A stretch of DNA of 64,000 bases from Macrostomum lignano (taxonomy: Eukaryota): NCBI GenBank assembly GCA_002269645.1, contig NIVC01002068.1:124001-188000 (forward strand), read 5' to 3'. Below are positions 7,401 through 55,922 of this stretch, one piece after another. Each line of letters begins with the position of its first letter. Positions within the stretch are counted from its first letter, which is position 1. The position numbers and the translations under genes were made by a program. The notes below the pieces were generated by a model. The model worked only from the letters and a program-made list of their open reading frames with translations, was not told the DNA's origin and did no database searches.

Positions 7401-7862
7401 AGTTGCAATCGGTCTCAGGACACAGATTGGTGGCTTGTTGTTCTCGTCGATCGTGTACCACTCGTGTAGACACGAGACGTCGCGTCCGTCCTCCTTCAAC
7501 GCTTCCACGATGTTGTTGAACACGTCGACCTCGACAAGGGCTGCAGGCGGCTGGTTGCCATAGCGCTGACCCAGCAGACAGATGAAGTAGGGGCCGGCAG
7601 ACATGATGAGCGAGTTGTCGATCTCTTGGTAGCACATGTACGGACCCTGGTGGTCGAGCTGTACCTCGTCACCGACTCCCCATCGCATGTCGATGGTTTG
7701 AAACTCGAGTCCGAAGGAGTCACGGCAGAACTTTTTCAGCCTTGGATTGACGTGCTGCATGAGGTAGTTGCGCTCCGTTCCCATGTCCGAGAAGGTGGAC
7801 GACAGGAAGATGCGCACGACGCGGCTGTTCATGATCGGCAGGTCGTCCAGACGGCCTTTCAT
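1447..7862 (-). CDS. NWD-type STAND protein, copy 1 (DUF4062-like N-terminus, NACHT/AAA ATPase, WD40-like propeller); exons 7862-7389, 7291-5870, 5742-5365, 5287-1892, 1776-1494 (or read-through to the stop at 1447)
   Basis: Motifs [11 protein letters not shown] and DMRWGV (DUF4062), Walker A GDSGSGKT, Walker [28 protein letters not shown] and [13 protein letters not shown] are typical of NWD1/NWD2-like proteins. All junctions are canonical phase-0 GT-AG and keep the frame. Confidence 0.88.
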
Positions 7863-9631
7863 GACTTTTAGGTAGACTGCTAATGGGTCAAACTCGGTGA
7901 GCGCTCCTATAAACTCCGAGTATCAGCCGTTTTAGCAGAGCTGGCCGCTTGGCTGACCGCACTGGCCGCGAGTGGCGGCTGTGAGCTGAGCCGATCCGTT
8001 TGGCCCCTCCCACATCGGAGGGCTCTCGTGAATTCAGGAACAGGTTTAGTAGCTGTTATTGATTTTCTAGTATTTTCTTGTTTTCATTGTGAAAAGCACC
8101 TGCTTAGTTTTGACCATTTTAGTAAATGGGATGTTGGATACTAGGCGATAAAAGAGAGGAATCTCAAAGAAATGGTAAAATGGTCCTCAAATCTGTGTTT
8201 TCCATCAAGGTTCATTTCATATGGTTCTTATTTTAAAAGTCTTAAAAATGTATTTTCTATTAGATTCATGAGTTGATTGGACAGTTCCAATTTTTGTTAC
8301 TTATAATGGCTGCTAAATTCGATTCATTAAATACCTACCAAAATCCTGTATGAAAATTTTAGTTAACTAGATTAATTATCTAGATTAAATAAATTTATTG
8401 TGGATTAGCTAGATTTATTTATCTTTCTCGTAGCTCAAAGGAAGTCATTTAAAAATTCATGTCTTATATTTTACTATTAGCTCATAGTAAAATTGAAAAT
8501 TTTGCTAATAATATAATTTTTGTATTATCTACTTATTATATTACAATTTGATTTTACAAAGCACATATCTATGCAAGTTAAAAGACAATTTTGATTTTTT
8601 TATTTGCTTTAAATTGCTAATCATAAAATATTGGTTTTGGAGTCCTTTGTTGTAGACACAATATAATTTTAGTGAATTTTTTTGGTACAACAAATATTTA
8701 GATTCGTGCTTCGTATATTCGACTAAGGCAATAACATTTCTGAGCAAAATTTTTGATTTGTAACTTTAAAGTCAAAATTAATTCTGGTTCTTAGAATGAT
8801 GACAATAATATAATATGTGTATAATAATATGTGTATAGATAAACTGTTTTAGTAAAAATATAAGGAAAACCGACTAAGATCAATTGAAGACAAACTTTTA
8901 ATGTATTTACATCGAGGGTATTTGAAAAATAAGGAATTAGGAAAAAATACAAGCTACAAATTTGAGAGACTTTGTTGGTCAACCCTAACGACTTTACTTT
9001 GATTTCAAAATAGTAAATCTTCATGGTTACTTGTTGTCATGAGTTTTAAAAGTCTGAGAGATGGTTTGAGGAACAGTAAAATATTTTCCTTTGTCTCGTT
9101 TTGCCGTTGAACTTTATCGATATTGTGATTTTGTTAATAAAAACTCGTACTTTTGTTTTAACTAGTACTAATATGCTCATCAAAAAATCCTGTTCCCACT
9201 AGATAATAAAAATGCATATTTGACAACATAATGACGACATATTCATCCATACGTGACGACAAATTCATCCATACGTGACGACATAAGGCGGGAAGACGGT
9301 TTTGTGTAGCGGTTAATTGGATAGTTCTCGATTTAGTTTTAGCATATCGGCAAGCCGCTTTCACCCTTAGAGTTACTTTGAATTGTTAGGCCTTGCAAAT
9401 TGCAAATTGCAATTGCAAAGATCGGAATCAGTTTATGAATTAATTGGTGGGCCGAGGTAGGCGGCGGAAGAGTTGATGGCAAGGAGGCCAGACAGCTAAG
9501 GGGCCCGCAAGCTTGAGCGAGAAGCGAAGCGAAGAAGCGAAGGGAGAGAGCGGCCGCTGACTGCAAGTGTATGTTTGTAATTGGTGAGTAAACAAAGATA
9601 ACAAGCTTAATCCAAACTTGTTTATTTTATA

Positions 9632-9680
9632 CCCCCTCAGACAAACCCCCTCAGACAAACCCCCTCAGACAAACCCCCTC
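9632..9680 (+). repeat. 14-bp minisatellite (CCCCCTCAGACAAA)n, the Polinton target site; continues at 24625-24647
   Basis: 3.5 units left of the element and the remainder on the right, read directly. Confidence 0.9.
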
Positions 9681-10393
9681 AGTAGAAGGCATGAGGGGGC
9701 TTTTGGGACAAAATTTTTCACGTCCTCCATAATCCACCTAAATCCATCCATATTATCCCCGACAGAATCAGAAAAAAGGGGGGTCGCACTCGTTCACAAA
9801 ACGTCCTCCATAATCCACCTAAATCCATCCATATTATCCCCGACAGAATCAGAAAAAAAGGGGGGTCGCACTCGCTCACAAAACGTCCTCCATAATCCCA
9901 TTAAATCCATTCATATTATCCCTGACAGAGTCAGAGCAGGTGTCCACTGATACCTGTTATGTTCACTGACACTGACATCCACCCATAGCATCTTCGAAAC
10001 AATCAGAAAATAATCTGCATTCTTCTCCCCATGGGGCCCACATTCAATTCGCAACGTGCTACCAGATCCCAAATACTTTAAATCATCAGCGCAGGGTCCT
10101 TACCCTTTGAAAAAAAATTAATTTCTCAATAAAAATGTTTCCAGTTGTCTCTCCAGGTTCCTATTATACTCAGCCTCATCCATTGTACAAATCCAAGTAC
10201 CAATGCAAACTAGAATGCAGCGAATACATGAGAAAATATTGGCCCGACGTTGATATCAATGTCCCTAATATTAATCAAGCACTTAAATCTCACTGGTTTG
10301 AAAAACACGGAGTAGTCATTAACAATTTTGACAGCTATTATAACTTTGCTGAAGTTATAAGGCAGTTGTAGTAGCCAACTACACGGTTGTACC
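9681..10393 (+). repeat. Left TIR (~713 bp) with three ~81-82-bp subterminal tandem repeats (9721-9940)
   Basis: Near-perfect reverse complement of 23911-24624. Confidence 0.95.
10135..10371 (+). CDS. 78-aa unknown ORF within the left TIR (identical copy in the right TIR)
   Basis: Starts in the element-wide AAAAATG context and ends 22 bp before the inner TIR boundary. No recognisable domain. Confidence 0.55.
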   Translation: MFPVVSPGSYYTQPHPLYKSKYQCKLECSEYMRKYWPDVDINVPNINQALKSHWFEKHGVVINNFDSYYNFAEVIRQL

Positions 10394-10707
10394 CTGTAGA
10401 GTGCAGACGCAAGATCTAAAAATACTGACAAAATCATGTGCAGCATATAGCGGCTCGTATTAGTTACATTTGTAAGCGATAGCTTACTGATAGTAAAGCT
10501 ATTTGAACATGGCGCGAATTCCTCACATGGTGGACTAGAAAATGTCGCCATGTGCAAGGCAAGGACTTGGTGCAAGGGCGTATAAATAGCAGTTCCACTC
10601 AGCTGGCTAGAGGTGGAGCCGACCTCGCGTGGCTATGACTGACTGACGAAGGCAAAAAGCCCAAAACCGGTCTCAGTCTGCCCCGCATGGTTCGATTCCC
10701 ACTGATA

Positions 10708-10930
10708 ACATGATTTTCACGAACGTTCGTAAAAATCATGTGCAGCATAAAGCGGCTCTCAGTGGTTACATGATTTTTACGAACTTTCGTAAAAATCATG
10801 TGCAGCATAAAGCGGCTCTCAGTGGTTACATGATTTTTACGAACTTTCGTAAAAATCATGTGCAGCATAAAGCGGCTCTCAGTGGTTACATGATTTTCAC
10901 GAACGTTCGTAAAAATCATGTGCAGCATAG
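10708..10930. repeat. Four 60-bp tandem units, each with a 34-bp palindrome (ACATGATTTT(C/T)ACGAAC(G/T)TTCGTAAAAATCATGT)
   Basis: Read directly; a partial solo unit lies at ~10431-10457. Confidence 0.92.
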
Positions 10931-10992
10931 AGAAAAAAAGCTTGCCCAGCTCAAGGATTCCTTAACTAGCTCAAAAGATCCCTCGCCTAACT

Positions 10993-11493
10993 TCACAAAC
11001 CCCCATTTAGTTCCTTGTTTAAACCCCCAGCCTTCTCAACCCCCAGCTCTTTCAGCAGAACTCCTACTTTTTTCCTTGGCGCGTGCAGTACAAAGCCCAC
11101 CCCGCCCTCTCTCCCCAAACACCCACCCTCGCCGTCGATCCCCAACCCCAGCTTTTTCTTACCAAAAATAACCGCCTTGACTAATTTCCGAGCAATCGAC
11201 TCGCGAAATCCGCTTGAAGCCCCTATATTGTCTAGTCTTCTAAGCATTTCTTTGTCCCAGCGATTCTTCTCCTCAGGAAAATCTCTATATTTAACGTCGT
11301 GCCACATGCAGACAGAGTCTAGCTCGTTCACAGGCTCATGCCCAGGATTTGGATTATCGTTTGTATCTAACTGTATTTCAAGTGGATTCAAAGGCCCGCA
11401 ATATTTGTACCCGGGAAGTGTCCAGCCTTTGTTTGGATGAGGAAGCTTTTCTATCAGTCCATGTGAATCTAACTTACCACCAGAGCGTTGCAT
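10993..11493 (-). CDS. Parvovirus VP1u-like phospholipase A2 (adintovirus PLA2X-type), 166 aa
   Basis: WTLPGYKYCGPLN Ca-binding loop and EPVNELDSVCMWHDVKY catalytic HD motif. Confidence 0.88.
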   Translation of the reverse strand: MQRSGGKLDSHGLIEKLPHPNKGWTLPGYKYCGPLNPLEIQLDTNDNPNPGHEPVNELDSVCMWHDVKYRDFPEEKNRWDKEMLRRLDNIGASSGFRESIARKLVKAVIFGKKKLGLGIDGEGGCLGREGGVGFVLHAPRKKVGVLLKELGVEKAGGLNKELNGGL

Positions 11494-11523
11494 TATTTTA
11501 TTTTAAATTTTCTTTTTAAAAAA

Positions 11524-12483
11524 ATGACAGATGAGAAACTTAAAAAACTCTACTACAGCGACAAAGGATTCTTTGTAGGAAAAAATGCCGTCACCAAACT
11601 CGCAGAACTAAGTAAGGAACCAAAAGCAAAAGTAGAAAAGTGGCTCTCTAAGCAGGCTGTCTTTCAAGTCTATTTCCCACCTGTTATATTTACAAGACCT
11701 CACTTTAGCATCTATAAACCTAATGAGGCGCACCAAGCAGACTTATTGTTTCTCCCCAACGACTCAGGCTACAAGTATGCTCTTACAATTACAGACGTTG
11801 CCTCCAGATATAAGGAAGCGAGACCGCTTAAGACGAAGAAGTCAGAAGCAGTTGCAGCCGCCCTCCAAGATATTTATAAAAACTCACCCCTTAGTTACCC
11901 TGAAATCTTTATGACGGACCCGGGTAAAGAATTCATGGGTGCAGTGAAATCACTTCTACATAAGCATGACACAAAAATTCGCTATGGAAGAACTGAGCTA
12001 CACAGAGACCAGGCTTTTGTGGAAAGATTCAATCTAACTCTAGCCAAGAGACTATTCACTAAGCAGACAGCTGAAGAGCTGAAACTAAAAAGTGGTCAGT
12101 ACTATACCAAGTGGACAGACCGGCTCCCCACTGTTATAGAGCAACTGAACAATGAAGTCACGCGCATGACTGGATTGAAACCGTCCCATGCAATTAAACA
12201 AGACACTGTCGAACTTAAGTCATCTCATAGAACAGACACCTCGAACTACCCTAAGCTTCCAGGAGTTGAATCACCATACATACTGACAAACTCTGAGTTT
12301 CAACGCTTTTTATATCTACCTGGAGAGCTAGAGAAAGACACCAAAAGAAGAGCTACAGATCCATACTTCAGCCTTGATGTACATAAAATAGACAGACATT
12401 TTACCTCCGACTCCGGTGACTATTACTTTTTATCTCAGGTCTTTAACCCTAAATCCCCCACGCGGTCATTCACTAGAGCTTAA
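11524..12483 (+). CDS. Polinton retroviral-like (DDE) integrase
   Basis: HQADLLFL, TITDVASRY, MTDPGKEF, QAFVERFNLTL. An in-frame tail (LLVIPADTEIN, to 12519) follows the TAA, suggesting a premature stop. Confidence 0.93.
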   Translation: MTDEKLKKLYYSDKGFFVGKNAVTKLAELSKEPKAKVEKWLSKQAVFQVYFPPVIFTRPHFSIYKPNEAHQADLLFLPNDSGYKYALTITDVASRYKEARPLKTKKSEAVAAALQDIYKNSPLSYPEIFMTDPGKEFMGAVKSLLHKHDTKIRYGRTELHRDQAFVERFNLTLAKRLFTKQTAEELKLKSGQYYTKWTDRLPTVIEQLNNEVTRMTGLKPSHAIKQDTVELKSSHRTDTSNYPKLPGVESPYILTNSEFQRFLYLPGELEKDTKRRATDPYFSLDVHKIDRHFTSDSGDYYFLSQVFNPKSPTRSFTRA

Positions 12484-12535
12484 CTCCTAGTGATACCAGC
12501 TGACACAGAAATTAATTAAAATATTAAAATAAAAA

Positions 12536-12981
12536 ATGACAAAGATTGAAACCAGAACCATCAATAAACTCAATAAAATCATTGAATCAAAGAAACCAGG
12601 TATTATATCAATTAAAGGTGTCAAAGTAAAAATCGATCCCACGCAGCAAATACTTCAGTGTAATGAGCAAAGACACAGCATCACAGATGAAAAGTCAGGA
12701 GGAATCCTACCATTAGCAGCTCTTATCCCGATTATTGCAGGCGCTGTAAGTGCTGCAGGTGGTGTAGCTGGAGGTGTAGCAACTGCTGTTAAAGCTGGTA
12801 ATGATAGAGCCCACCAGCTTGAATTGCAAAAGATTGCAAGAGACAAAGGTATAACAATTAAGGCAGAGAGGGCTGCCCCAATCGTGATGATTGTGAGAAT
12901 GAAAATTCTGTAAGCAAGTCTGACATTGTCAAAGCAATCATGACACTGCACAATGCTGGGTTTACAATAATGCGCATGTGA
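12536..12981 (+). CDS. Adenovirus pX/mu-like core protein; apparent one-base deletion at ~12860
   Basis: KSGG|ILPLAALIPIIAGAVSAAGGVAGGVATAV resembles adenoviral pX (GGILPLLIPLIAAAIGA) after a GG protease-cleavage-like site. Adding one A gives the C-terminus ...SKSDIVKAIMTLHNAGFTIMRM. Confidence 0.7.
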
Positions 12982-13122
12982 ATGTGAATGTGGATGTGAT
13001 GAGGTTTAAAACCCCGCTTTATCCAGCTTCATAAACCTAACGCTACTTATAGGATGTAGAAACAGTTCAACTTTTCTATCAGGGTGGTAACCCTCAAAAA
13101 AATTTTTATTTTATAGAAAAAA

Positions 13123-16100
13123 ATGCCAAAAGCCAATCCAGCAAAAGATTTAGTCAACAAATATTTTTCAAAAGGCGTCTCATTTCAAGAAAAAAGTAAT
13201 TTACTAAGAGAAGCATGTAAACAAAAGTTTAACACCGACCCTGGTCACCTGGGAAGCTATGAAAAACAGTTGGAAATCATCAATCAATTAGAATCCAACC
13301 AATATGCGCCTATACAAAATCCTGCAAAGGAACACCAAGAGAGGAGTCGCAACTTAGTTAACAAATACGAAACTCTCACTGGTGAAAAAGCAAAGTACCC
13401 ACAAAATAAGCAGGAACAAGGGAAATTAGAGCAATTAATCCATTTAAAAGAGTCGGAGCTTGCCATTGAAGAGATTAATTTTGCACAGAGGAAGTTTACA
13501 GAACATTACATAGAGTACACAATCCCAATAAACGGCACCACCGCAAACATCTACGACCATAAAGACAGCATCCAATCAGTTGTTGATCACACACTCAAAA
13601 CACGCAAGACCTTTAAACTACAGATATCATTCAAGATTGCGTTTTATATGCCTGCGAAACCCACTGAGCATCTCGAGTATTACATGACAACAAAGGCAAA
13701 ACCATTCACCCCAACAGACACACTGGATCCTTTCCTTCAAGATGTCAATAAGAAAATTGAAGCGTTTACATCCAGAGGTTCCGGATGGGTCGTGGGAGGG
13801 ATTCAAAGAGCGACTGTCATGGTCATGAAATATGACCCACTTAAAGCCTCCTCTTATATAGAGCTCCCACACAAGCTAGCCGGCAAAAAAGCTTGCATAA
13901 ATGTTAAAAATAAAGACAATTGCTGTGCTCTATGGGCAGTTCTTTCTGCACTTCTTTATGATAGTGTCCCTCACCACCCCGAAAGAACCTCAAATTATCA
14001 AAATTATTTCAACTACTATCTCATCGAATGCGAAAAGAAGGGAATCAGGTTTGACAAAGGAGGCTTGGCAATCTCTCAGATCCCAAAGCTAGAAGAAGTG
14101 TTTAATAACAAAATTAGAATCACAGTCTTTGAGTGGAGTGAGAAAACTGAAAAAGTTCAACCGGTCAGATGTAGCAAAGACGTTTTAGATCCTGAGGGGA
14201 AAAGGCGGACTGAAGTGGATCTTCTAGTGATTGGTAATTTACTAGAGGAGGCTCACTATGTTTGGGTTAAAGATCTTTCAAGACTCATTCACAAGCAGTT
14301 GAATAATCATCACGAGGCTGTTGCCATCTGCCGCTTGTGCCTTAAGCATTACAGTGGACCTGAACGCTTTGAAAAGCTAACAGAGCATGAATTATCATGC
14401 GAGGATCACCCGACAAACTGCTCTCTTCCTTCAGCTGAAGAGAAGTATCTCCGGTTTAAGAACTATCACAAGATGGAGAAGCTCCCATTTGTTGTATATG
14501 CTGATTTTGAATGCTCAATCATGCCAGAAACTCAAAAACATGTCCCCAATTCAGTAGCATATGCCTTTATTAATACAAAAGGACTTGTTGAGTCTAATTA
14601 TTTCTTTGGAGACCAGTGTGTGGAGCAGTTTATTGCCAGAATGTTAGAGTTGCAAAGAGTAATTAGCACCCTTCAACCTGTTCCAATAATGATGACTGAG
14701 GAGGATGAAAGCAATTTCCTATCAGCAACTCATTGCCACATCTGCAGGAAACAGTTAACTTGCACTGATTTTTAAAAACCCCACCGTTAGAGACCACTGC
14801 CACTATACTGGGAAATTTAGAGGTGCAGCGCATAACACCTGCAATCTAAAGCTAAAATCGAACATTCATGATCTAACGATATTTTGTCACAACGCAAAGA
14901 ACTATGACATGCATTTAATAGTTGAAAAAATCGGCATGATTCCAGACATACACCTTGACTGCATCGCAGAGAACAAGGAGAAGTTTAAGTGTGTTGATAT
15001 TAAACAGGATAATTCGGGTACAGGTAAAATAAGACTGAAGGATTCATATCAATTTCTAGCTGCCAGTCTAGACGAACTAAGCAAGAATCTAAAAGATGAA
15101 CAATGTACATATACTTAAGATATTTGCAAGTAAAATTAACAACAGTGATGAATCATTTAAACTCCTGAGAACCAAAGGCTTCTACCCCTATGAGAATATT
15201 ACTGGTTATCACGTATTTGAAGAAGGTTTACCACCACAGGAGAAGTTCTTTTCAAAGCTAACAGACTCTGAAATCTCTGACAAAGACTATGAGCACGCGA
15301 AGCATGTCTATAATTATTTTAATTGTCAAAACTTCTTCCAGTATCACCTGCTTTACCTCTTCACAGATGTGTTTCTGCTGGCCGATGTGTTTGAAACCTT
15401 CAGATATACCTGGTACACAGCATATGGCCTCGATCCAGCACATTATGTGTCTCTGCCTGCCACTAGCTGGGAATCTTTGCTTAAAATGAAATGGGATCAA
15501 GATCCAGATTGGTACATTGAACTTCTTACAGACATTGACATGTACAATTTTGTCGAATCGTCAAAGCGAGGGGGAATCTCAATTTGCACCCATAGATATG
15601 CAAAATCAAACAATCCCTACATTGAATCTTACAATAAGGAGCAGCCCTCAAACTACATTACTTACTTGGACGCTAATAATCTCTACGGGTGGGCGATGAG
15701 TCAAGATCTTCCAGTTAGAGATTTTCGATGGCTACCCTCATCAGAATTCAAACGGGACTTTTCATTGGCTGCCATTTATGAGGTTGATGTTTACATTCCA
15801 CCAGAGCTTCACGACTATTTCTCTGACTTTCCACCCTTCCCAGAGAACATCAAGTGCCCGAAAATAATCGAAACTCCCAATGATAATAATGGAACTTGGC
15901 ACCTGTCAGGAACAGAAAAAGAACATACAGAGAAACTAACACAGAATCTAAACAACAAGACACGTTACAAAATCCATTACAAACTGCTTCAGTATTTTAT
16001 CTCACTTGGTTGCAGGGTCACTAAAGTTCACCGGGCTCTTACATTTACAGAGGAAGCGTGGATGAAACCCTACATTGATAAGAATACCCAGTTTAGGACC

Positions 16101-16942
16101 AAAGCAACCAACGACTTTGACAAGAACCTCTTTAAGTTAGCCAACAACTCTGTCTATGGCAAGACTCTTGAGAATGAGCGGAAAAGAACAAACCTGAAAC
16201 TTGTTACCTCATCAGAGCCTGCTGTTATTCAGGCAAATATGTCAAAGCCAACATTCAAAGAACTCCATATCTTTAATAGCTACTTAGGTGTGATCATATT
16301 TTACAAAACCAAGGTGACGCTGCGCAAGCCGATCTATACAGGTGTCACTGTACTCGACGAATCAAAACGTTGATGTACCAGTTCTTCTATGGCATGAAGC
16401 AGCAGTACAAGGATAAAATGAAACTCTTGTACACTGACACAGACAGTTTTATTATGGACATTCAAACAGAAGACATTTATCAGGACATGCTGCAGCAAAA
16501 AGATTTGTTTGACTTGTCTGAGTATGATGAATCTTGCAGGACACAGAATGGCGATCAAGTGTTTGACGCCACTAACAAGAAAGTGATTGGGAAAATGAAG
16601 GACGAGATTGCTGGTGACATAATCACTGAATTCATTGGGTTGAGAGCAAAGTCCTATTTTGTAAAATGTGAGTCGTCAGACCCAATTAAAAAATCAAAGG
16701 GAATTCCGAAACGTGTGGTTAGGAAGGAAATTAATGAAGCTGAATACAGAGACGCCTTGAATTGCAACAAAAAGACATCACGTGAGTTCTCAAAGCTACA
16801 ATCTAAAAACCATATTATTCACACAATTCAGCAAAAGAAGATTGGACTGTCAGGTGCAGATAACAAGAGATTCATTTTTGATGACAATATCAACAGTCTG
16901 CCGTTCGGGCACTGGAGATTAGGTTTAGGAGGTGGAGGTTAG
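13123..16942 (+). CDS. Protein-primed family B DNA polymerase (pPolB) with an OTU-like region and inserted endonuclease-VII-like Zn domain; three frameshifts (~14770, ~15112, ~16365)
   Basis: ExoI YADFEC; CHIC...RDHCHYTGKFRGAAHNTCN; HNAKNYD; RLKDSYQF; YLDANNLYGWAM; KLANNSVYGK; YTDTDS. Adjacent ORF pieces join by single-base shifts. Confidence 0.95.
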
Positions 16943-17052
16943 GTTCGGGCACTGGAGATTGGGTTCGGGCACTGGAGATTAGGTTTAGGAGGTGGAGTTT
17001 AGGTTTAGTTTTAAGAGAAAGTTTAATAAACCTCATAAAAAATGACATAAAA

Positions 17053-17460
17053 ATGACGACAAATAACTTTCTTGAAGATTTGGCTAACGAACTGGAAATC
17101 CCAAACTTTAGAGGAATATTTATGAGGGACACTCTGCCTGATTTTCCTCTAAGAAAGGAATGCGGCATCATGAACTTTGACACCACCGATAAGCCAGGAT
17201 CTCATTGGGTTTGCTGGGTGATTGATCCCGATCGCAAGCACAAGTGTTATTACTTCGATAGCTATGGGACGGCAGTACCAGAAGAGCTAAGAAATTATAT
17301 GAAGGGAAAAAATAATAAAAAAATTTACCACTCAGACTTTATTCTTCAAGGTCTTAGCAGTGATATTTGCGGTGAGCTGTGCATGACTGTTTTGTATGCA
17401 ATGACCAAAACACGAAAGACCTACAAGGAAATTATTCTTGGCTTTCCCGGTGTTTCATAA
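17053..17460 (+). CDS. Adenain-like cysteine (maturation) protease, 135 aa
   Basis: GSHWVC (His), YFDSYG (Asp), LQ...DICGELC (Gln/Cys) catalytic motifs. Confidence 0.92.
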   Translation: MTTNNFLEDLANELEIPNFRGIFMRDTLPDFPLRKECGIMNFDTTDKPGSHWVCWVIDPDRKHKCYYFDSYGTAVPEELRNYMKGKNNKKIYHSDFILQGLSSDICGELCMTVLYAMTKTRKTYKEIILGFPGVS

Positions 17461-17464
17461 AAGT

Positions 17465-18132
17465 TCATTGTACATTTCTCGTCGTCCTTCTTGCCGAATT
17501 TTTTGCCGAATTTCTTTCCGCATAATGTTGAAAAACTTTCTCGAGTTCATTTTTCAGCTGACTCATGTCATCAGTACCGACCATGTTCAAGTTCATTCGA
17601 ATTGATTGTTCATAAAGATCCTGAATGGTTTTGAACTCATCCTCTGAAATGAACTTATCATCGATTGCCCTTGAAATGTACCCTATGATTGAAGTGTGCA
17701 CCCCTTTCTCTTTTACTTGCTTCTCCTGTAGCTGCTTTAGTTTTTTTCGCCTGTTTCGCGCTACTGCTCCAGTAATTGCTGAAATAAGTCCACATGCAGC
17801 ACCCACAGAGCCGAGCGGGATTGCGATTGGGGCTGTGATGACTGGCAACACTGAGACAGCTGCAGCAGATCCAGATAGAACAGACACAGATCCTAGAATC
17901 ATATTGCTGTAGTCGAAAAATTTACAGTGGCTGTCATAGCGCTTAATTTTCTTTGTGTCGTGGAAAATATTTTTTTCAAGATCATCGCGCATTTTTTGAA
18001 TCTCCACCAGTCGAAACTGTTGAGAGTTACAAGTAATGACGGGGTAGAGTTTTTTTGCTCATATTGGGGTGCACTAGGTGCACTAGGTGTTGTGGGAGCA
18101 TTCTGATCATAAAGAGAATTTTGAGCATCCAT
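17465..18132 (-). CDS. Gasdermin-X-like membrane protein of adintoviruses; one-base frameshift in the T7 run at 18050-18056
   Basis: Corrected N-terminus ...SAPQYEQKKLYPVITCNSQQFRLVEIQK, a long Gly/Ala-rich hydrophobic hairpin, and ISRAIDDKFISEDEF; pattern recalled from Polinton accessory proteins. Confidence 0.65.
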
Positions 18133-18242
18133 TTTTTAAGAGAATTTTTTAAAAAAAATCGACAACTAGTTGGTGGTGTTAGATTTGTTTTACGTTTGAT
18201 TGCTTCGTCTGCAGTCACGGCAACGGGTCTCTTCGAATCTGC

Positions 18243-18989
18243 CTATTCATTGTCTGTGAGCTCCATTCTACGTCTGATCTCAAACAAGTCGGTTGGATCA
18301 CTTATTTCCCTTGTGCAGGTCTGTGGTGCCTCTTCAGCGTCAATGTTTTTGAGATTATGCAAGCGTTCAAGACGACTGATTCTTCTCAACGATTTCTGCC
18401 ATTCGGTAAAAATTAAATCTAAAAAGACTTTAATTGTATCAATTCTTACTTTGATTTGATCATGCAACGCTGTTGACTGAGTCATGAACTCTTCTAAATT
18501 CCTCACTTTACCTGTGTTGGTTGCGACGTTTTCTTTAATTCTATCATGCAATGCTGTTGACTGGTTCATGAACTCTTCTAAATTCCTCACTTTAACTGTG
18601 TTTGTGAAAACTCCTTCTTCAAGAATGCGCATCCGCCTATCAATGGAGTTTCTCAGAAGATTAATTGTCGATGCTAAATTTGTTCTTAAACCGTTGATTT
18701 GCGAGACTGCCGAAGTTATTTCTGACCTTAGTTCATTAGTTGCGTGTACAACCTGTACATAAAGCTTATCACTTTCAAACTTCTGCCTGGCTACTTTTAT
18801 GCGGAGATCTTCTATGTTTATCTGTAGCTGGTGCATGGAGCGCTCTAATTGTTTCAGTCTGTTTTTATTCAGTTTGATCTCTGGGATCTCTTCGTCGCTG
18901 TTGATATATCGCCTGTCAAGGATGGATATTTGAGCTGATGTAAGAGCGCTGTTGCCAGAAATGGATTCACCTGCAAAGTTTATTGACAT
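18243..18989 (-). CDS. 248-aa coiled-coil protein (possible fibre/spike) with an internal 28-aa (84-bp) tandem duplication
   Basis: Heptad-rich ORF; TNTVKVRNLEEFMNQSTALHDRIK / TNTGKVRNLEEFMTQSTALHDQIK. Confidence 0.7.
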   Translation of the reverse strand: MSINFAGESISGNSALTSAQISILDRRYINSDEEIPEIKLNKNRLKQLERSMHQLQINIEDLRIKVARQKFESDKLYVQVVHATNELRSEITSAVSQINGLRTNLASTINLLRNSIDRRMRILEEGVFTNTVKVRNLEEFMNQSTALHDRIKENVATNTGKVRNLEEFMTQSTALHDQIKVRIDTIKVFLDLIFTEWQKSLRRISRLERLHNLKNIDAEEAPQTCTREISDPTDLFEIRRRMELTDNE

Positions 18990-19005
18990 CTTTTAATAGC
19001 AAATT

Positions 19006-19806
19006 TTAAATTACAGTTCTTTTTTCTTTGCTGATAATCACAAACTGGTAAGGCTGATTCCACTTGTCATAGCAAAGATTAACGAATTCCTCTTGTGAAA
19101 TCTTTCTGCTTGAGTTTTTTGTTGGATTTATGAAATAGGCAGGCGCAATGACCTCATTGTAAAATCTTTTTAACCTGTCCTGTGGAATGGTTGGAAACAG
19201 GAGAATCAGATTGCAGTTCCCACGAATTGTTTTGTTCGGGAGCTCGAACCAGTTCTGTGCAATGTAAATTACATTACAATTGTTATGTCGTCCTCTTGTA
19301 AAATAGTTTTCTATCTGCTTCTGTGGGCCTGTCATACAATCATCAAAGACGATCAAATGCTTTCTCCCCTTTTCTAGCTCATCTGGTTGGGGTAGAAGTT
19401 TGGTCTTTGGATCAGCCTGTGGATCTCCATAGGTGAACACTTTAATGTTCTGCCATTTTTCATTGTCTTTGAGGTGCTTTGAATATTCAGCAGCTACAAT
19501 TTCTGGGTTACTGGGAAGGCTCATTTGGTTATTAAAACATGCAATAATGTCCTCTTTGTTCAGCTTGTTTTGAAACCCTGCAATCAACATTCTATACTCA
19601 TCTTGATACAGTGTGGGAGAGTAGATGTGCAGAGTGTCATAGTCGATAAAGCCAGGTCTAAGAAGCATGTTAAAGACTCTGAATGTTTTACCTGAACCTG
19701 ATGAACCAACAACAATGCATCTGAAGTGACTCGGAATTGACTCGTGATGAGAAAACTTAATCTGATTACGCGTCCAGTGAGGATTGAAGTCGTTTGAAAA
19801 GTCCAT
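19006..19806 (-). CDS. A32/FtsK-like genome packaging ATPase
   Basis: Walker A VGSSGSGKT, Walker B LIVFDDCM, FTRGRHNNCNVIYIAQ. Confidence 0.95.
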   Translation of the reverse strand: MDFSNDFNPHWTRNQIKFSHHESIPSHFRCIVVGSSGSGKTFRVFNMLLRPGFIDYDTLHIYSPTLYQDEYRMLIAGFQNKLNKEDIIACFNNQMSLPSNPEIVAAEYSKHLKDNEKWQNIKVFTYGDPQADPKTKLLPQPDELEKGRKHLIVFDDCMTGPQKQIENYFTRGRHNNCNVIYIAQNWFELPNKTIRGNCNLILLFPTIPQDRLKRFYNEVIAPAYFINPTKNSSRKISQEEFVNLCYDKWNQPYQFVIISKEKRTVI

Positions 19807-19825
19807 TTTTTCTATGACAAAAATT

Positions 19826-19990
19826 AAATAATAAGTCATTTAGATGTGTCATTTCGGGACTTGAATGTGTCGTTTTGGGACTTAGATGTGTCATTTTGGG
19901 ACTTGGATGTGTCATTTTGGGACTTAGATGTGTCATTTTGGAACTTAAATGTGTCATTTTGGGACTTAGATGTGTCATTTCGGGACTAGT
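19826..19990. repeat. 21-bp tandem repeat (AGATGTGTCATTTTGGGACTT) x~7-8; minus strand reads (MTHLSPK)n
   Basis: Read directly. Confidence 0.9.
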
Positions 19991-20012
19991 CTTGTACCCT
20001 CGGAAAGTACCT

Positions 20013-20402
20013 TTAGTCAAATTTGAAACCACTTCCTTTTTTAATGCTTGCTCTCATCTTCTCATAGACTGCAGGGTCCACACTGTCTGGGTTTGGGGCC
20101 AGCGGGGCCAGCGGGGCCAGTGGAGGTTGAATCTCTTGTTTAGGTGTTACAGTATCCTTTATCTTTTTGGCTGCTGTGGCTACACTGCCAGCCACTTCGG
20201 CAACGTTCTTGATGTTCTCTTTGTTCTCTCCAATGACCTTAAAAATCTTAGCCCCCTGAGCGATCAAATCAGCAAGGCCATTCCCAGAGCGTTCTTTTCT
20301 TGGATAGTGGCCTGCAGGGAAAAGTCCAGATCCGCGTTTAATGAGATTAAGTTCCTCTTTGTCATAGTATTTGTCAATGTCTTTTTCGAAAATAAGAGGC
20401 AT
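20013..20402 (-). CDS. 129-aa putative virion core protein with three GxG motifs (KRGSG, RSGNG, KKGSG)
   Basis: AAAAATG start at 20402; amphipathic segment GLADLIAQGAKIFKVI after a GxG site, as in protease-processed Polinton core proteins (inference). Confidence 0.65.
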   Translation of the reverse strand: MPLIFEKDIDKYYDKEELNLIKRGSGLFPAGHYPRKERSGNGLADLIAQGAKIFKVIGENKENIKNVAEVAGSVATAAKKIKDTVTPKQEIQPPLAPLAPLAPNPDSVDPAVYEKMRASIKKGSGFKFD

Positions 20403-20418
20403 TTTTACTTGAAATAAA

Positions 20419-21665
20419 TTATTTTTTGTTGAACCGCGAAAGCAGAAGCTCTCTCGCCCTCTTATCGATGTATTTTCTCTCAAGCATTTTGTCCAGGATG
20501 TTGACAAATTCTTTTCTATTTTCATCTTTCATTCCGGTCTTTGCCGCTCCTAGAAGAACCGCTACTCGCTTGTAGATTTCAGAAATTCCTTTTCCAGTTG
20601 AGGGCGGTTGGTCTTGGGGTTGTGGAGTTGGTTGGGCTTGTAGCTGCTGGGGAGGTGATGCAAAAGACTGCTCACTTTCAGAGATGGAACTGTCATGTGG
20701 TGCCTGTCTTTGTTGAGGTGTGAAAACTCTTTGATTGATTCTTTCATTCGATCTGGAGAGTGTTGTTCTAAGCGTTGCCAGTCTGTTGGGTTTTGTTTCT
20801 TATATTCAGCTACTTTCAAAGGGTCTAACTGCTCGAGTTGACTGAGTACTTGTTCTTCTGTGAAATGTTGCTGCTGTTGTGGCGGTCGTTGTTGTTGTTG
20901 TGGTTGCTGTTGCTGTTGTTCTAGATATTTCATCTGATCAATGACTTCCCCCTGATCTGGCAAACCAAACCATTGTTTAAAGTGCTTGTACTTTTTGAAT
21001 TTAGTCAGGTTGACACCGCCATTGTACATGTGTTTCAGAACTTCTGGGACCTTTAGTATTTCTATATCTCTAGCAAGAGAAAAAGTCACTAGATCTCTGT
21101 AGTTCTTTAGCTGCTTGTCCGAGATTCTCTCTTGGTTCTTGGTCATAAAAGTCAGTAAGGCGTCTGTGAAAGGAATTTTCATAGCTTCTGAGCCTTTGAC
21201 AACAGAAATATTTTCCTTATTTATGTCGATATAATATTCCACTGGTTCATTATAAATGTTTTTTCTCCACATACTTATTCCAAATACATATTTCCCATCA
21301 TGTTCGACACGCTCTACTGGTCCAAAAATGTTATCTGTCACTTTTAGTTGCTGTTGTGGTTGTGATTGTTGTGGTTGTGATTGTTGTGGTTGCGGTTGTA
21401 TCTGTCGTTGCGGTTGTATCTGTGGTGCTTCTGGAATTTTTCCCAAAGCCTTTTGCACCTGGGTTTCCTGTATGTCGTCGATAGTTTCTTTGACCTGATC
21501 AATATTTTTCTTAGCTTCTCCATACCCGGGTTTATGAAACTCTGTGGCTGCTTGGACAAACTCATTGTAGGATTGTTGCTCCTTATTTATTAGCCTGGTA
21601 ACTCTCTTTTCTGCCTGCGCCAGCTTTTCTAGTTCAGATATCTGCTGTGTACTTTTTCGCTTCAT
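20419..21665 (-). CDS. Conserved Polinton Gln-rich protein; frameshift in a 4-base run at 20723-20726
   Basis: Adding one T extends the ORF to TGKGISEIYKRVAVLLGAAKTGMKDENRKEFVNILDKML...RFNKK*, matching the recurrent Polinton GxG..RL.LL.G...G...E...IL..L motif. Confidence 0.7.
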
Positions 21666-21695
21666 TTCTTATTTTATTTTATTTTTAGTTAAAAA

Positions 21696-22991
21696 ATGAA
21701 CGACCCACTGACACCAGTTTTCTACAAAATTAACAAGCCTATTTTGAGTGATGATAGCACAATCAAAGCGACTCAGGTAAGAGTTCCCAGTCAGGAAAAT
21801 CAGAATGAAACTAATCTTGGTCCTGGCCAAACACTGACATTTACATACAATGGATGTTCGTCTTTGGTCAGTGTCCACAGTCTAAGGAGCGGCTTCTATA
21901 TGACGTTTCAATTCAAAACTAAAGGAGGCGCAGACGCCGCTCATGCTAATGATGATCTACACAATGCGGATGTCGCACTAACCAGTAATTTCTGGGCTTA
22001 TATGTTCAAAGAGTTTAATGTGTCCAATGGAAGTACAGAGTTGGAAAGAATAGCAAACTTTGGTGTGGTCTATGATACCCAGTGCTTGATTGAGAACCCG
22101 GATTTTATTCAGATGGGGAGCGGTGCTGGATTCATCCCCAATGAACAGACAGGAGATGAGAATGACCCTGGTTACAAAAAGAGAAAGGAGAGATACAACT
22201 ATGCTCTTGCTGGTGAGAACGATGCTGCTAAGAATCCGCTGTTTAGGTCTGTAGATATTTTTGTACCTTTGAGGTTTATGAGTGGTTTCTGTAATAGTTT
22301 CAATCGGTTGACAAGCAACTTTAGCTACACATTTAGACTGACTAGAGATGATCGGAACAGAGGAATTTGGTCGGGGGCCAATCATACATCGATGGAGATT
22401 AAGCTAACTGGTGTGGAGCTGTACTTAGAAATTATTGAGCCCAAGACTGCACTCAAAGCTGAATACTTGAAGGCGATTGAGAAAGACATTGATGTTGCTT
22501 ATACAGCTTATATGTGCAGAGATGAGCGGAATGACGCAAGACACAATATTTGCATTAAAGAAGGCTCCTGTAGCAATCCAAGGTACATTATTGTCACTAT
22601 GAGGAATACAACTAATGTAGGTAGATATCTACATGGAAACATTCGATCGATTCAACATGAGATCAGTGACAATTTATACCCTGCATTGCCACAAAATGGG
22701 AATTTCTCGGAGAACAAGATTAGTAAGTTTTACAATGAACTGTCGGACTTGGCTGTCAAAGAGAATAACGGTATTGTTTTGACAACCTTGCAGTATAAAA
22801 AACTATATCCAATATTTGGTGTTGATGTGACTGCTAGACAAATGCCTACAGACAATAGCCCTGTTAACATTGTGACTAATATCGAGCGGAAAGAATTTGG
22901 TGCCGCAACGGCTGTTGATCTGTTTATTATCTATGCATTTGAGAGGAAGATCAAGGTCAATATGATCAATAACTCGTCTAGTAAAGTTTGA
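21696..22991 (+). CDS. Double jelly-roll major capsid protein, 431 aa
   Basis: Size, position, N-terminal SDDSTIK, NPRYIIVTM and C-terminal YPIFGVDV...LFIIYAFERKI as in Polinton MCPs. Confidence 0.82.
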   Translation: MNDPLTPVFYKINKPILSDDSTIKATQVRVPSQENQNETNLGPGQTLTFTYNGCSSLVSVHSLRSGFYMTFQFKTKGGADAAHANDDLHNADVALTSNFWAYMFKEFNVSNGSTELERIANFGVVYDTQCLIENPDFIQMGSGAGFIPNEQTGDENDPGYKKRKERYNYALAGENDAAKNPLFRSVDIFVPLRFMSGFCNSFNRLTSNFSYTFRLTRDDRNRGIWSGANHTSMEIKLTGVELYLEIIEPKTALKAEYLKAIEKDIDVAYTAYMCRDERNDARHNICIKEGSCSNPRYIIVTMRNTTNVGRYLHGNIRSIQHEISDNLYPALPQNGNFSENKISKFYNELSDLAVKENNGIVLTTLQYKKLYPIFGVDVTARQMPTDNSPVNIVTNIERKEFGAATAVDLFIIYAFERKIKVNMINNSSSKV

Positions 22992-23013
22992 ATAATTTTT
23001 TTTCAATAAAAAA

Positions 23014-23871
23014 ATGGAAGCCATAGCCGAAAGACTGAACAACATTGTTTCACACTCTAAGGAGAGCATTCCAATCACTGTAGCGGGTCGCATTACTGAG
23101 TCAAACGGAATCTTCATTCAAAAATTGGAGCAACCACTTCGTTTGGATCCCGAGGCGAATTACCACGTCTATCTCAATGATTTCACTGGGTGGTCAAATG
23201 TTCCCAATGTGACAGCGGAAAATAACAAGTTTTATTACAAATGGAAGCGTACTACAACAGAGGTTGTGATATTTCCTGTCAGCACACAGAGCGTGGATAC
23301 TTATAATTACTTCTTGGAGAACGTCTTCACTAAACGAAAGCATTTTGAGATACCGGATGAAAGCAAACCAGAAAATAAACTGTTCCCTGTTAGATTAACT
23401 TATGATCTAACTGTCATGAGAGTTGTCTTGCAAGTTCATAAGGACGCAGAGGTAGAGTTTAAAGATGGCACTTGGTATCGCGAGTTGGGATTTGAAAAGA
23501 GAGTTTATGGTGGCGCCACAGACCAAAGCCCGCTGCAGGCGCCTGGCACTGTTGCTGTGTCCCGGCTAATATCCGGTATGTACTTGGCGCCAAATATCGC
23601 TGACATTGTCAAAGGTTTGAATATATTAATTCGCAGCAATCTGAGCCATGATTGGATATTCAAGGGCAAACGAAGCAACATACTTTTTAAAATTTCAAAC
23701 TCTGTTGCTGGTGGCAAAATGCTTGTGCAAAAGCCAAACCCCGTGAAAAGAGTGATTCTGAGTAATAGAGAGATACATGAAATCATTCTGCAGTTTGAAA
23801 CAGAGGATGGCGTTGGTGTCGATTTTAACGGGGAAGAGTTTGTGCTAACAATTATTATTGAGAGAATGTGA
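23014..23871 (+). CDS. Minor capsid protein (penton), 285 aa
   Basis: PLRLDPEANYHVYL...WSNVPNV..ENNKFYY and C-terminal IHEIILQFETEDGVGVDFNGEEFVLTIII. Confidence 0.82.
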   Translation: MEAIAERLNNIVSHSKESIPITVAGRITESNGIFIQKLEQPLRLDPEANYHVYLNDFTGWSNVPNVTAENNKFYYKWKRTTTEVVIFPVSTQSVDTYNYFLENVFTKRKHFEIPDESKPENKLFPVRLTYDLTVMRVVLQVHKDAEVEFKDGTWYRELGFEKRVYGGATDQSPLQAPGTVAVSRLISGMYLAPNIADIVKGLNILIRSNLSHDWIFKGKRSNILFKISNSVAGGKMLVQKPNPVKRVILSNREIHEIILQFETEDGVGVDFNGEEFVLTIIIERM

Positions 23872-23910
23872 GTCGTCTTCAGACTTGTAAAATTACGATA
23901 TAAGCCGCCA

Positions 23911-24624
23911 GGTACAACCGTGTAGTTGGCTACTACAACTGCCTTATAACTTCAGCAAAGTTATAATAGCTGTCAAAATTGTTAATGACTACTCCGTGTT
24001 TTTCAAACCAGTGAGATTTAAGTGCTTGATTAATATTAGGGACATTGATATCAACGTCGGGCCAATATTTTCTCATGTATTCGCTGCATTCTAGTTTGCA
24101 TTGGTACTTGGATTTGTACAATGGATGAGGCTGAGTATAATAGGAACCTGGAGAGACAACTGGAAACATTTTTATTGAGAAATTAATTTTTTTTCAAAGG
24201 GTAAGGACCCTGCGCTGATGATTTAAAGTATTTGGGATCTGGTAGCACGTTGCGAATTGAATGTGGGCCCCATGGGGAGAAGAATGCAGATTATTTTCTG
24301 ATTGTTTCGAAGATGCTATGGGTGGATGTCAGTGTCAGTGAACATAACAGGTATCAGTGGACACCTGCTCTGATTCTGTCAGGGATAATATGGATGGATT
24401 TAATGGGATTATGGAGGACGTTTTGTGAGCGAGTGCGACCCCCCTTTTTTTCTGATTCTGTCGGGGATAATATGGATGGATTTAGGTGGATTATGGAGGA
24501 CGTTTTGTGAACGAGTGCGACCCCCCTTTTTTTCTGATTCTGTCGGGGATAATATGGATGGATTTAGGTGGATTATGGAGGACGTGAAAAATTTTGTCCC
24601 AAAAGCCCCCTCATGCCTTCTACT
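23911..24624 (-). repeat. Right TIR of the Polinton
   Basis: Reverse complement of 9681-10393, differing by a few substitutions and homopolymer lengths. Confidence 0.95.
23933..24169 (-). CDS. Second copy of the 78-aa TIR-encoded ORF
   Basis: Translation identical to 10135-10371. Confidence 0.55.
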   Translation of the reverse strand: MFPVVSPGSYYTQPHPLYKSKYQCKLECSEYMRKYWPDVDINVPNINQALKSHWFEKHGVVINNFDSYYNFAEVIRQL

Positions 24625-25317
24625 CCCCTCAGACAAACCCCCCTCAGGCGCAATGTACATGTACAAATTAATCGATAAAATAAGAGTATCGTGCCAGAAT
24701 ACCATAACGTCAATACATGTACATAGATGCATGGAACTACTTTACGAGAAATAATACACAATGCATGAAATACAATTAATGAAATAAATACATACGAGGC
24801 TACAAAAACAAAGTATTCAACAGTAACGTAAGCGCAATAATAATACGTATAGATTGTTGTTACAATGAAAGAAAGAATACAAGTGGTACGGTGTGCATGC
24901 GAGATAATCGAAATACGATACATATGCTTTCTACGAATTACACTGTCACACATATACTACTGGACTTTTAGACACAACATGATCAAAACAGCTTTACGGC
25001 GTATCAAGATTAGGCTTGTATTCTTTTCAACAAAACTTTGATCGCATCTGATTGTCCTTTCGTGCAGGTTTATAATTATTGCATACATAAAAAACAGCCA
25101 AGTTTTTTACTCTTTCTTCACTTTTATGAAAAATATATTCATAAGCGCTAGGGGCCTCATCGTGGTTCAAATCATCATGCTTGGCTTGGCCAGGCTTATT
25201 CAGTCAGCCAGGCTAAGTGGGCAGCAGCAGTGCATCGATCAACCAAGCTCGCTCAAGGCCTCACTGTACCGCTAGACTACTGACTTAGGTAACACTGACA
25301 GCTTAACCAAAGCCGGC

Positions 25318-25487
25318 ATGCAGGAGATTATCACCATCCACATTGGTCAGTGCGGCGTCTGCGTCGGGCTCAAGTACTGGGAGAGCCTGGCCGACGAGCA
25401 CGGCCTGGACTGTCAGGGCCAGTTTTTCGGCTCCAGCCCGTTGCAGCTTGAAAAGATCGGCGTGAACTTTGCGGAGTCGGGGTCCAT
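25318..25487 (+). pseudogene. Divergent beta-tubulin-like N-terminal fragment (~56 codons)
   Basis: MQEIITIHIGQCGVCVGLKYWESLADEHGLDCQGQFFGSSPLQLEKIGVNFAE aligns with beta-tubulin [52 protein letters not shown]. No continuation found in the window. Confidence 0.75.
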
Positions 25488-25567
25488 GAGAAATGCCCGC
25501 AGACGAATTGCCTGCCGAGATTTGCCCACAGGAGATTTGCCCGTGGAGATTTGCCCGCCAAGCTTTA

Positions 25568-28480
25568 TGTAGTCTCAGTGACAAGTACTTAAATAATAAA
25601 TCAAGACACAACATCTTCCCCCTCTCTGAGAGGTTCACCAGCCGTAACGTTGCACCGGTCGCCACTGACGGTTCGAACGTCTCAGCGGTGGAGTCGCAGG
25701 TCCCGAGGCTGGTCCTAGTATTTGAACGTTGGTCTCTCCGCCGCATTGTGCAGGTTGTTGCCTTTGAATGTCCACGAGGGGGGGTCAAGCTCGTTTGGCC
25801 CTGGTGGCTCAGAATTCGGCCGCAAAGACGTTGGTACAAGCGCCTGCTGATTCCAGGTGCTGCCGTCCGTTAGTCTACACACGGTGTTCGTTCTCTTGAC
25901 GATCTGTAGTGGTCCAGAAAGCCGCGTCCCCAGCTTTCCCTTTCGAACTGGACGATGCACTCGAACCCAGTCACCGGCGCACAATGTTGGTGGTCGCACC
26001 CCCGCCGCCGGTCGGTATAAGCTGCCGTTCGCTGCTGTCTCTCCTAAATTCGCTGGGCGATATCTGGTTGTGCCGCCGTGGTGTCCTTAAACGGGCCAGT
26101 AGAGACAGTGCAGTGCGCCAACGTCTTCTTAGCATCAGCTCCGCTGGACTCTTGCCAGTCAGGGCGTGCGGCGTACTGCGGTAGGTCTCAAGGAATTGCA
26201 ACAGCGCGTCTTTCATTGGGACATTCTCTGCCCTGGCCGCTCGTATGCTGTCTACCAGAGTCCGGTTGAGCCTCTCCGTCTGGCCGTTCGTGCTCGGACG
26301 GTACGGGCTGGTCTTCTGATGCTGGATGCCGCGCTCCCGCAGGAACCCCGTGAGCGCATTGCCGAACTGCGGTCCGTTGTCCGTGAGCACCGTCTTGCAG
26401 AGACCCCAGCGAGCGAACAGGCTGCGTAACACTTTGCAGATCGTCTCGGTGGTGATGTTTGACGTTGCAAATACTTCCGGCCATTTACTATGCAGATCCG
26501 TAATGACCAAAAGGAATCGTGACGATGCTGGTGCTGCCTGTAGCTCACCCACGATGTCGATGGCGATCTGTGTCCACGGCCCATCTGGCCACCGCAGAGG
26601 CTGCAGAGGAGCCGGTCGCAATTTGAAATTCTTTTCTGCGGTCTCGCAGGCACTGCAGTTTCTGACAAACGTTTCGACGTCGAAGTCCATCTTTGGCCAC
26701 CAGGCAAACTCGCGGAGCTGCTGCTTAGTACGAACCACACCGGATGTCCGGCGTGCGCCGATTCCAGTAGGTTACGCCGCAGCTGATGTGAATGACTGCT
26801 CGCTCTTGGAAAGCCAGGCAATGTGCCATCCTGCCAAACGCTGAGGTGCTCTCTGACTTTGAAGAACGGGTGCAACTCTGTATCCTTCGTTGAGCCCCAG
26901 TTGCCGCTAGTCACTCGCTTAATCACCTCGCGCAGAACCGTGTCCTCGGCCGTTGCTGTCGCTAGCTGGGTAGGTGTTACTACTCGGACTCGAGGCATCG
27001 CAGTGTCCGGTAGCTGTACGATATTCATGTCCGACCCACAGCTCCACATTGACAACATGTCGGCCACGAAGTTCCGATTGCCTGGCGGATATTTACGTGG
27101 AAATCGTACTGTTGAAATCTGTCACACCAGCCATGGATGCGCAGCGGCCGATGTCCCGTGCCGCTGGGTCCCAACAGTAGTTGACGTACCGCTTGATGGT
27201 CTGTTCGCAGCTCAAAGTGACGCCCATATAGGTAGTAGTGCCACTTCTCCATGGCCCACAGACTGGCCAATGCCTCCTGCTCATTTGCAGCGTATCGCTT
27301 CTCGGTGTCGGTCAAGGCTCGGGCGGCAAAGGCGATTGGACGCTCGACGCCGTCTTGGATCTGGGACAGGTTTGCACCGAGAGACTCCGCACTGGCGTCG
27401 CTGGTGACAATCGTCTCGGCCTCTGGGTCAAAGTGCGCCAGGATTGGTGGATTACAGATTGCTGCTTTTAGCTCTTGGAACGCTCTTTCGCAGTCCGTCG
27501 ACCACTCGAACTCCGCATCCCCCTTCAGTAGGGCCCTCAGAGGCGCTGTGACTTCAGCAAATTTGGGCACAAAGCGCATCAGGTAGTTTGCAGATCCTAG
27601 GAACGCCTGCAGCTCCAATTCCGGTTAGACGGTGAGCGCAACTGGCTGAATGCCTTGGTCTGGGACTCTGAAGGTCGCATACCGTCGGCTGAGAAGATGA
27701 GGCCAAAAAATTCTACCTCCGTCTTGCGTAGCAGGCATTTGTCCTTATTGGCCGTTAGGCCAGCGTCGTTCATACGCCCTAATAGCGCTCGCAGTCTTGA
27801 ATCATGTTCAGTCATGTTTGCTCCGAAAACAAAAAAATCGTCCAGAATATGTTCGACCCCATGAAGTCCGGCTACTAAGTCGTCCAACATCCTTTGGAAG
27901 GCTGCTGGCGCTGACGCTAAGCCGAAAGGCACTCTGCAATACCGATACAACCCCAGGTGCGTGATGAATGCTGTCAAGTCACGCGATGCCTCATCCAACT
28001 GCATGTAGCCAGCTTTGAGATCGATCTTTGAAAATACGCGGCCACTTTCTGCCTTGATCTTTGCCGAAATCTCGTCCAGCTGAGGCATCGGATGTCGATC
28101 GATTACAAGCGACTTATTCAGCTCTCGCACGTCGATGCAGATTCGAATGTTGCGTCTTTCTTGTTTGCGACAACCATGTTGGATATCCATGGGCTGGAGT
28201 TTATTCGTTCAATGCGGTCAAGTTCTCCATGCGGTCAAGTTCATTGCCTATTTTCTGTTGCTTTGCGAGGGGAAGGCGGCGCAGCGGCTGCTGCACTGGT
28301 AGCACAGCTGCATTTACTCTCGGCTTGTGCACCGCCCCTTTGCAGAGTCCGATTAGACCACTGAAAACCGCTGGGAACTCCTCCGCTATGTCTACACTGG
28401 CGATACTATTCTCAACCTCCGGAGGCTGCAGTTGTACCCGGAATCCATGATGCTGGGCCTGACTGCCTGCGTCCGGTTTC
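25568..28480 (-). mobile_element. Degenerate Ty3/Gypsy LTR retrotransposon pol (RT-RNaseH-integrase-GPY/F), 5'-truncated, with PPT and a short 3' LTR-like end
   Basis: RT (IRICID, FSKIDLKAGY, RVPFGLASAPAAFQ, ILDDFFVFG); RNase H (TSDASAESLGA, AFAARAL, TDHQ); integrase (QIAIDIVG, TDNGPQF, NGQTERLNRTL); KLGTRLSGP. Polypurine tract 25614-25628 directly precedes TGTTGTGTC. Several frameshifts. Confidence 0.92.
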
Positions 28481-52152: not shown

Positions 52153-54227
<2,075 letters not shown>

Positions 54228-55895: not shown

Positions 55896-55922
55896 GTGCG
55901 ATGTTTATCGATAAATGAAAAA

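Follow-up and report, generated by a model that had tools for sequence, protein, structure and literature searches.

We wanted to establish whether the segment at positions 9681-24624 of the window (the whole stretch of 64,000 nucleotides that was analysed) is a complete, recently inserted provirus that could be reactivated, as a preliminary description had proposed. We consider it highly probable that the segment is a full-length Polinton/Maverick with an Alpha-type polymerase (PolB) and a recent copy of a family that numbers tens to hundreds of members. As assembled, it has unbroken virion genes and a polymerase gene broken three times.

Ends, insertion site and gene content

The element is 14,944 bp long (9681-24624). 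Its ends and its insertion site comprise the following features.

9631-9682, no strand: 14-bp tandem array, the insertion target, with 3.7 copies at the left; it resumes to the right of the element
9675-9680, no strand: left copy of the 6-bp target site duplication, an exact match to the right copy
9681-10393, plus strand: left terminal inverted repeat, 713 bp, beginning with AG
23911-24624, minus strand: right terminal inverted repeat, 714 bp
24625-24630, no strand: right copy of the 6-bp target site duplication, an exact match to the left copy

The terminal repeats differ at three places (2 substitutions and 1 homopolymer indel), which makes them 99.6% identical, and the element termini are AG..CT. 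Nearly identical 713-bp repeats and an intact target duplication had been claimed, and both were confirmed. Because the repeats are 99.6% identical and the duplication is exact, we agree that the insertion is recent. In PMC10748475 Polintons/Mavericks are given as 13-25 kb long with terminal inverted repeats of 100-1,500 bp, and the element falls within both ranges. It likewise has the target duplication of 5-8 bp (usually 6) and the AG..CT ends of this group.

The insertion divides the 14-bp array where a small repeat-like segment, which starts near 9232, comes to its end. Depth at bin 8944-9567, to the left of the element, was raised 13-fold in run X1. The target segment (9232-9680 and 24631-24650) has short tandem repeats at both of its ends and raised depth, and a contig lacking 181 bases inside it was present in runs X1 and X14. 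Within the left terminal repeat we observed an 82-bp tandem repeat (9720-9935). The G+C content is about 40% inside the element and 47-58% in most of the nearby coding DNA. The related host region near 39 kb of the window contains no such element. An 8-base word near the repeat end (9692-9699) matches the 14-bp target unit. Target specificity based on this match was unconvincing, as 397 of 20,000 shuffles and 83 of 9,104 14-mers of the window matched as well (1-2% chance).

Several other features were seen in the host surroundings. A host gene of the NACHT/STAND type is tandemly duplicated at 1318-8070 and 31357-38152; its copies are 97-98% identical and are spliced in the RNA runs. A tubulin N-terminal fragment (25318-25572) adjoins a frameshifted pol remnant of the Ty3/gypsy type (25971-28208). 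Dense satellite arrays with periods of 4, 17, 38, 42, 44 and 74 occupy 44242-64000, and an exon of a GPCR (rhodopsin-type receptor) lies among them at 55.4-55.9 kb. The receptor, the NACHT protein and the Ty3-type remnant mark the host as an animal, possibly a flatworm.

The gene map of the element is as follows.

10993-11493, minus strand: parvovirus-type phospholipase A2 (PLA2), PF08398, E 1.8e-13
11524-12483, plus strand: retrovirus-like integrase, 319 aa, PF00665 (rve), E 2e-10
12536-12913, plus strand: pX-like small protein, PF05829, E 3e-7, with a probable frameshift near its end
13123-16942, plus strand: protein-primed DNA polymerase B (Alpha type) in four pieces, with breaks near 14.77, 15.1 and 16.37 kb
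17053-17460, plus strand: adenain-type maturation protease, 135 aa, unbroken frame
17465-18132, minus strand: GasderminX-like membrane-type protein in two frames, with a break near 18.05 kb
18243-18989, minus strand: 248-aa ORF with an 84-bp internal repeat, sub-cutoff Pfam match only
19006-19839, minus strand: FtsK/A32-type packaging ATPase, PF04665, E 4e-6, unbroken, likely start at 19806
20013-20402, minus strand: 129-aa ORF
20562-21665, minus strand: 367-aa Gln-rich ORF, with a probable frameshift near 20.7 kb
21696-22991, plus strand: double jelly-roll (DJR) capsid protein, 431 aa, PF21738, E 9e-9, unbroken
23014-23871, plus strand: penton (minor capsid protein), 285 aa, unbroken

Six core genes were identified. 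The PolB and rve integrase of Polintons/Mavericks are present, though the polymerase is in four pieces, and so are the DJR capsid, penton, packaging ATPase and protease. The polymerase matched PF03175 (DNA_pol_B_2) with E 2.6e-13. By motif patterns alone, its pieces contain presumed OTU-like Cys and His motifs and exonuclease and polymerase motifs. The PolB is of the OTU-PF03175 class of Alpha adintoviruses, with OTU Cys/His recognised by motif only. Relatives of the polymerase occur in corals at 45-47% identity. It is 41% identical to the PolB of the Corynactis adintovirus, which is grouped under Alpha in Fig. S2 of Starrett et al. (PMC8502044). The Polinton/adintovirus identity first proposed for the locus was upheld.

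Past the integrase stop, the frame continues open for another 11 codons (12481-12519). This stop may be premature; the relatives compared have a different C-terminus. Two entry genes had been named, PLA2 and the pX-like gene, and both have Pfam matches (PF08398, E 2e-13; PF05829, E 3e-7). A third label, gasdermin-X-like, held only in the sense of a conserved Polinton membrane-type protein. The window piece of this ORF (17.5-18.1 kb) had no Pfam match, and two relatives had none above the cut-off. Relatives were found in 3 of 111 loci, all of them with PLA2, ATPase and capsid. GasderminX proteins are recognised by likeness to the gasdermin C-terminal domain and by a pX-like end; for the ORF at 17465-18132 the label is tentative and follows the general character of the family and the position in the element. 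A second break in this ORF was left uncounted, its only trace being one 13-residue non-collinear match.

Three more features lie in or beside the terminal repeats.

10135-10371, plus strand: 78-aa ORF, copy in the left terminal repeat, with weak likeness to one RNase T2 motif
23933-24169, minus strand: second copy of the 78-aa ORF, in the right terminal repeat
10708-10929, no strand: array (60 bp x 3.7) of 34-bp imperfect palindromes between the left repeat and PLA2

The 78-aa ORF matched RNase T2 in Pfam with E 0.003, below the cut-off (profile positions 67-101 of 188), solved structures with E 0.01, and Atlas with 0.92, a low recognition; all of these matches concern the same single segment. 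As an RNase T2 the ORF was rejected, since that enzyme has two catalytic segments in about 190 aa and the ORF has one segment in 78 aa. No homologue was found among 109 loci (0/109). The ATG of the ORF is preceded by AAAA, as are 6 of 10 other gene starts of the element, compared with 17 of 516 ATGs overall; in this count the PLA2, 248-aa and 367-aa starts are without it, the ATPase was counted at its second ATG and the 129-aa ORF as a miss. A putative RNase-T2-like gene in both terminal repeats is, on these weak sequence likenesses, a lead only. The palindrome array folds far better than shuffles (z -11.6), as palindromes must, and is reminiscent of baculovirus hr arrays.

Virion genes and frame breaks

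Uninterrupted ORFs had been reported for capsid, penton, ATPase and protease, and we found each of them as one open frame. The capsid is full length: relatives of 422-438 aa cover 99-100% of it at 41-76% identity. It is only 20-25% identical to the other Polinton capsids found and had no match among sequences of solved structures. In a quick tree of 46 capsid proteins, for which the tool warned that long branches may join falsely, the capsid and 10 unnamed relatives, all on short contigs of at most 8.5 kb, formed a clade on a long branch (3.66, support 100). Hallmarks of both virion-module classes, Alpha (Mayetiola) and Beta (Terrapene), are present in the element, and the capsid hits include no named reference. 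For the penton ORF (285 aa) we found 120 relatives; a profile built from the ORF and 47 of these (48 sequences in all) matched only two solved pentons, with E 0.006 and 0.017. The protease aligns over its whole length with Polinton proteases and with adenain across the His region, and its Pfam match to the adenovirus protease lies just under the cut-off. Single-protein scans with capsid, integrase, polymerase and the 78-aa ORF (with capsid also in viral contigs) gave no close loci. Polinton capsid genes were also observed on two contigs filed in bacterial genome bins (L110 and L111), of which L110 also carries integrase, ATPase, PLA2 and polymerase. These contigs are likely misbinned eukaryotic or viral DNA.

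The polymerase changes frame near 14.77 and 15.1 kb in comparison with 13 of 13 full-length relatives, and near 16.37 kb in comparison with 11 of 11 relatives that extend that far. The pX-like, GasderminX-like and 367-aa ORFs are likely also frameshifted in the assembled copy. The provirus had been called complete; this is true from end to end and does not extend to its coding capacity, given three frameshifts in the polymerase. An 'intact' Maverick is defined in PMC8097293 as one in which no core ORF contains a frameshift or a stop, and the element as assembled falls outside this definition.

We further compared the window with contigs of public runs for differences in length. Briefly, 12 of 51 entries were examined, and 11 of these lay inside the element. 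They fall at 9 places of the element. The polymerase has three of these places and the pX-like, GasderminX-like and 367-aa ORFs have one each; a further place lies in the 248-aa ORF (in frame), and the last two are intergenic. None among these 12 of 51 entries fell in capsid, penton, ATPase or protease. At the three polymerase breaks a length difference was present in 4/4, 3/4 and 4/4 runs. Since public-run contigs differ in length there, the family also has unbroken forms of the break spots. At two of the three breaks the difference concerned just 15-44% of the DNA-run depth; at the middle break 97% (X1) and 79% (X4) of the depth differed from the window, and X8 showed no difference. The two breaks at 15-44% and the result for X8 suggest that the window form may be common to other copies.

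These data bear on whether the breaks belong to the DNA or to the assembly. The breaks may be long-read errors left uncorrected in a repeat that short reads could not polish, so that the copy would be coding-complete. The broken genes are without a certain in-frame stop, the open frames of the four polymerase pieces overlap one another, and the same-place length differences in 4/4, 3/4 and 4/4 runs point in the same direction. The terminal repeats, with 1 indel to 2 substitutions, have a high indel share; as a rule of thumb, one indel per two substitutions is high for natural change. However, the repeats differ by substitutions too, no run exceeds 2 letters at 5 of the 8 break places inspected, and the host flank is accurate for indels (0 gaps in 8 X1 pieces, 2,874 letters in total, and likewise 0 in 8 X4 pieces). 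We give assembly error slightly less than an even chance, and for the breaks of this copy we regard real and erroneous origin as about equally probable.

A defective subfamily multiplied in trans, in which many copies share the breaks, would agree with the observation that at two polymerase breaks most of the DNA-run depth has no listed length difference. However, such a difference would go unnoticed in short contigs whose ends fall at a break, and at the middle break most of the depth (the 97% and 79% above) differs from the window. We consider such a subfamily unlikely.

Depth and RNA cover in public runs

Among 24 listed runs, 20 (from 7 studies) contained 57-71% of the element words, and the run with the most (71%) may be the source sample. 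The median depth of the element over 19 places was approximately 520 times (X1) and 360 times (X4) that of the single-copy flank, and the lowest element bin was at 56 and 32 times, respectively; contig depth is here a sum over overlapping records, which overlapping short contigs inflate, and is not a copy number. One place in PLA2 had about 1x in X1 and 0 in X4. In X1, 6,614 of 12,738 contigs were less than 99% alike; about half is as expected of many diverged copies. From contig depth, the family likely has tens to hundreds of copies, and the locus is likely one of many related copies and not a singular provirus.

The depth of the capsid and penton (22048-23900) was 9-13 times below that of the polymerase in both DNA runs. 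Either this capsid type is in a minority of copies, or the module is absent or different in many of them. The drop is a hint of modularity, with more than one capsid type in the family or copies that lack the capsid.

None of the runs was recorded as RNA; X14 and X8 were recognised as RNA runs, because three host introns are skipped only there and are kept in the DNA runs. Both cover every element bin. Their contigs are up to about 3% different from the window (e.g. 16 other letters in 534), so other copies would be the main source of any transcripts. A Gln-codon repeat with unrelated loose ends is the site of one RNA peak. Given the great DNA depth of the family, carry-over at 0.1-1.6x single-copy depth would be enough to produce this cover, and DNA carry-over could thus explain what might be taken for expression of the element.

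We also asked whether much of the high depth could come from free, replicating linear genomes, i.e. from an active virus. This would fit the very high DNA depth, the virion genes without breaks and the cover in two RNA runs. It would also fit the weakness of the rank agreement between RNA and DNA depth profiles (Spearman 0.30 and 0.37, only a hint), compared with 0.88 for DNA with DNA. On the other hand, carry-over of about 0.1-0.2x (X8) or 1-1.6x (X14) single-copy DNA suffices for the RNA cover. Broad contig divergence, a similar profile in DNA runs from two separate studies and the 9-13-fold lower depth of the capsid genes all fit integrated copies. We find free genomes very unlikely as the source of the depth.

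The same runs bear on the age of the copy. In favour of an old, fixed fossil are at least 6 frame-breaking places and the best run, which contained only 71% of the words, with about 1% difference from retained contigs. Against this stand repeats at 99.6% identity, an exact duplication, four unbroken virion genes and the related host region at about 39 kb without such an element. Such a fossil is extremely improbable, and we retain the reading of a recent copy.

Interpretation and comparison with known elements

By analogy with known families, in which integrase, polymerase, ATPase, protease and PLA2 have these roles (PMC8502044, PMC11161782), the integrase would insert the element with a 6-bp duplication. 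The polymerase precursor would carry a terminal-protein and an OTU protease domain, and a working member would replicate by protein priming from the inverted repeats. The ATPase would package the genome into the double jelly-roll capsid, the protease would mature the capsid, and PLA2 and the small membrane-type proteins would aid entry. Since the assembled form, with its polymerase in four pieces, cannot make the polymerase, this copy would depend on its siblings; its intact ends would permit movement in trans only. Autonomy of this copy was not supported.

An active virus lineage of a laboratory-kept invertebrate seems quite unlikely to us; it would have hundreds of copies or free genomes, a capsid of an unnamed deep lineage that environmental assemblies also contain, one replication module combined with several capsid modules, and a small RNase-T2-like gene in both repeats. 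If true, it would be a rare animal system in which to seek Polinton particles in existing material. A host that has a large young family, with virion genes free of breaks and with sequencing runs from 7 studies, offers a useful setting in which to look for free genomes and capsid transcripts. The present copy adds no proof of particles, and such families are already known from corals, nematodes and fish. Animal Polinton particles have so far not been seen directly, according to PMC8097293 and PMC11131425. We found no published description of the present family in the open-access literature.

With Alpha adintoviruses or group-2 Polintons (Starrett et al. 2021, PMC8502044) the element shares the PF03175-type PolB with OTU-like Cys/His, the rve integrase, FtsK ATPase, adenain, hexon, penton, inverted repeats, PLA2 and a pX-like protein. 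Unlike in the Alpha scheme of that source, its pX is a separate ORF, and PLA2, a hallmark of the Alpha module, is joined with a GasderminX-like gene, a hallmark of the Beta module. This pair is also present in three other loci (L059, L085 and L110) and is thus not unique. Its capsid differs as well, sharing just 20-25% identity with the other capsids of Polintons that were compared.

Vertebrate Mavericks (Barreat and Katzourakis 2021, PMC8097293) have a similar size (12.7-24.6 kb) and similar repeats (46-1,447 bp), the 6-bp duplication and mostly broken copies. They differ in gene order and in their ends, which are (AG)3 or (AGT)2, while the end of the element is AGTAGA. The present family seems larger than their median of 8 copies.

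For stony-coral polintoviruses (Stephens et al. 2024, PMC11131425) expression of hallmark genes was reported, whereas the RNA cover of the present element was not separated from DNA carry-over. Other papers describe copy-number variation of Polintons in nematodes (PMC10748475) and their restraint by PIWI silencing in a planarian (PMC8532177). The element shares with the stony-coral polintoviruses of PMC11131425 a large expansion in an invertebrate in which capsid genes are retained.
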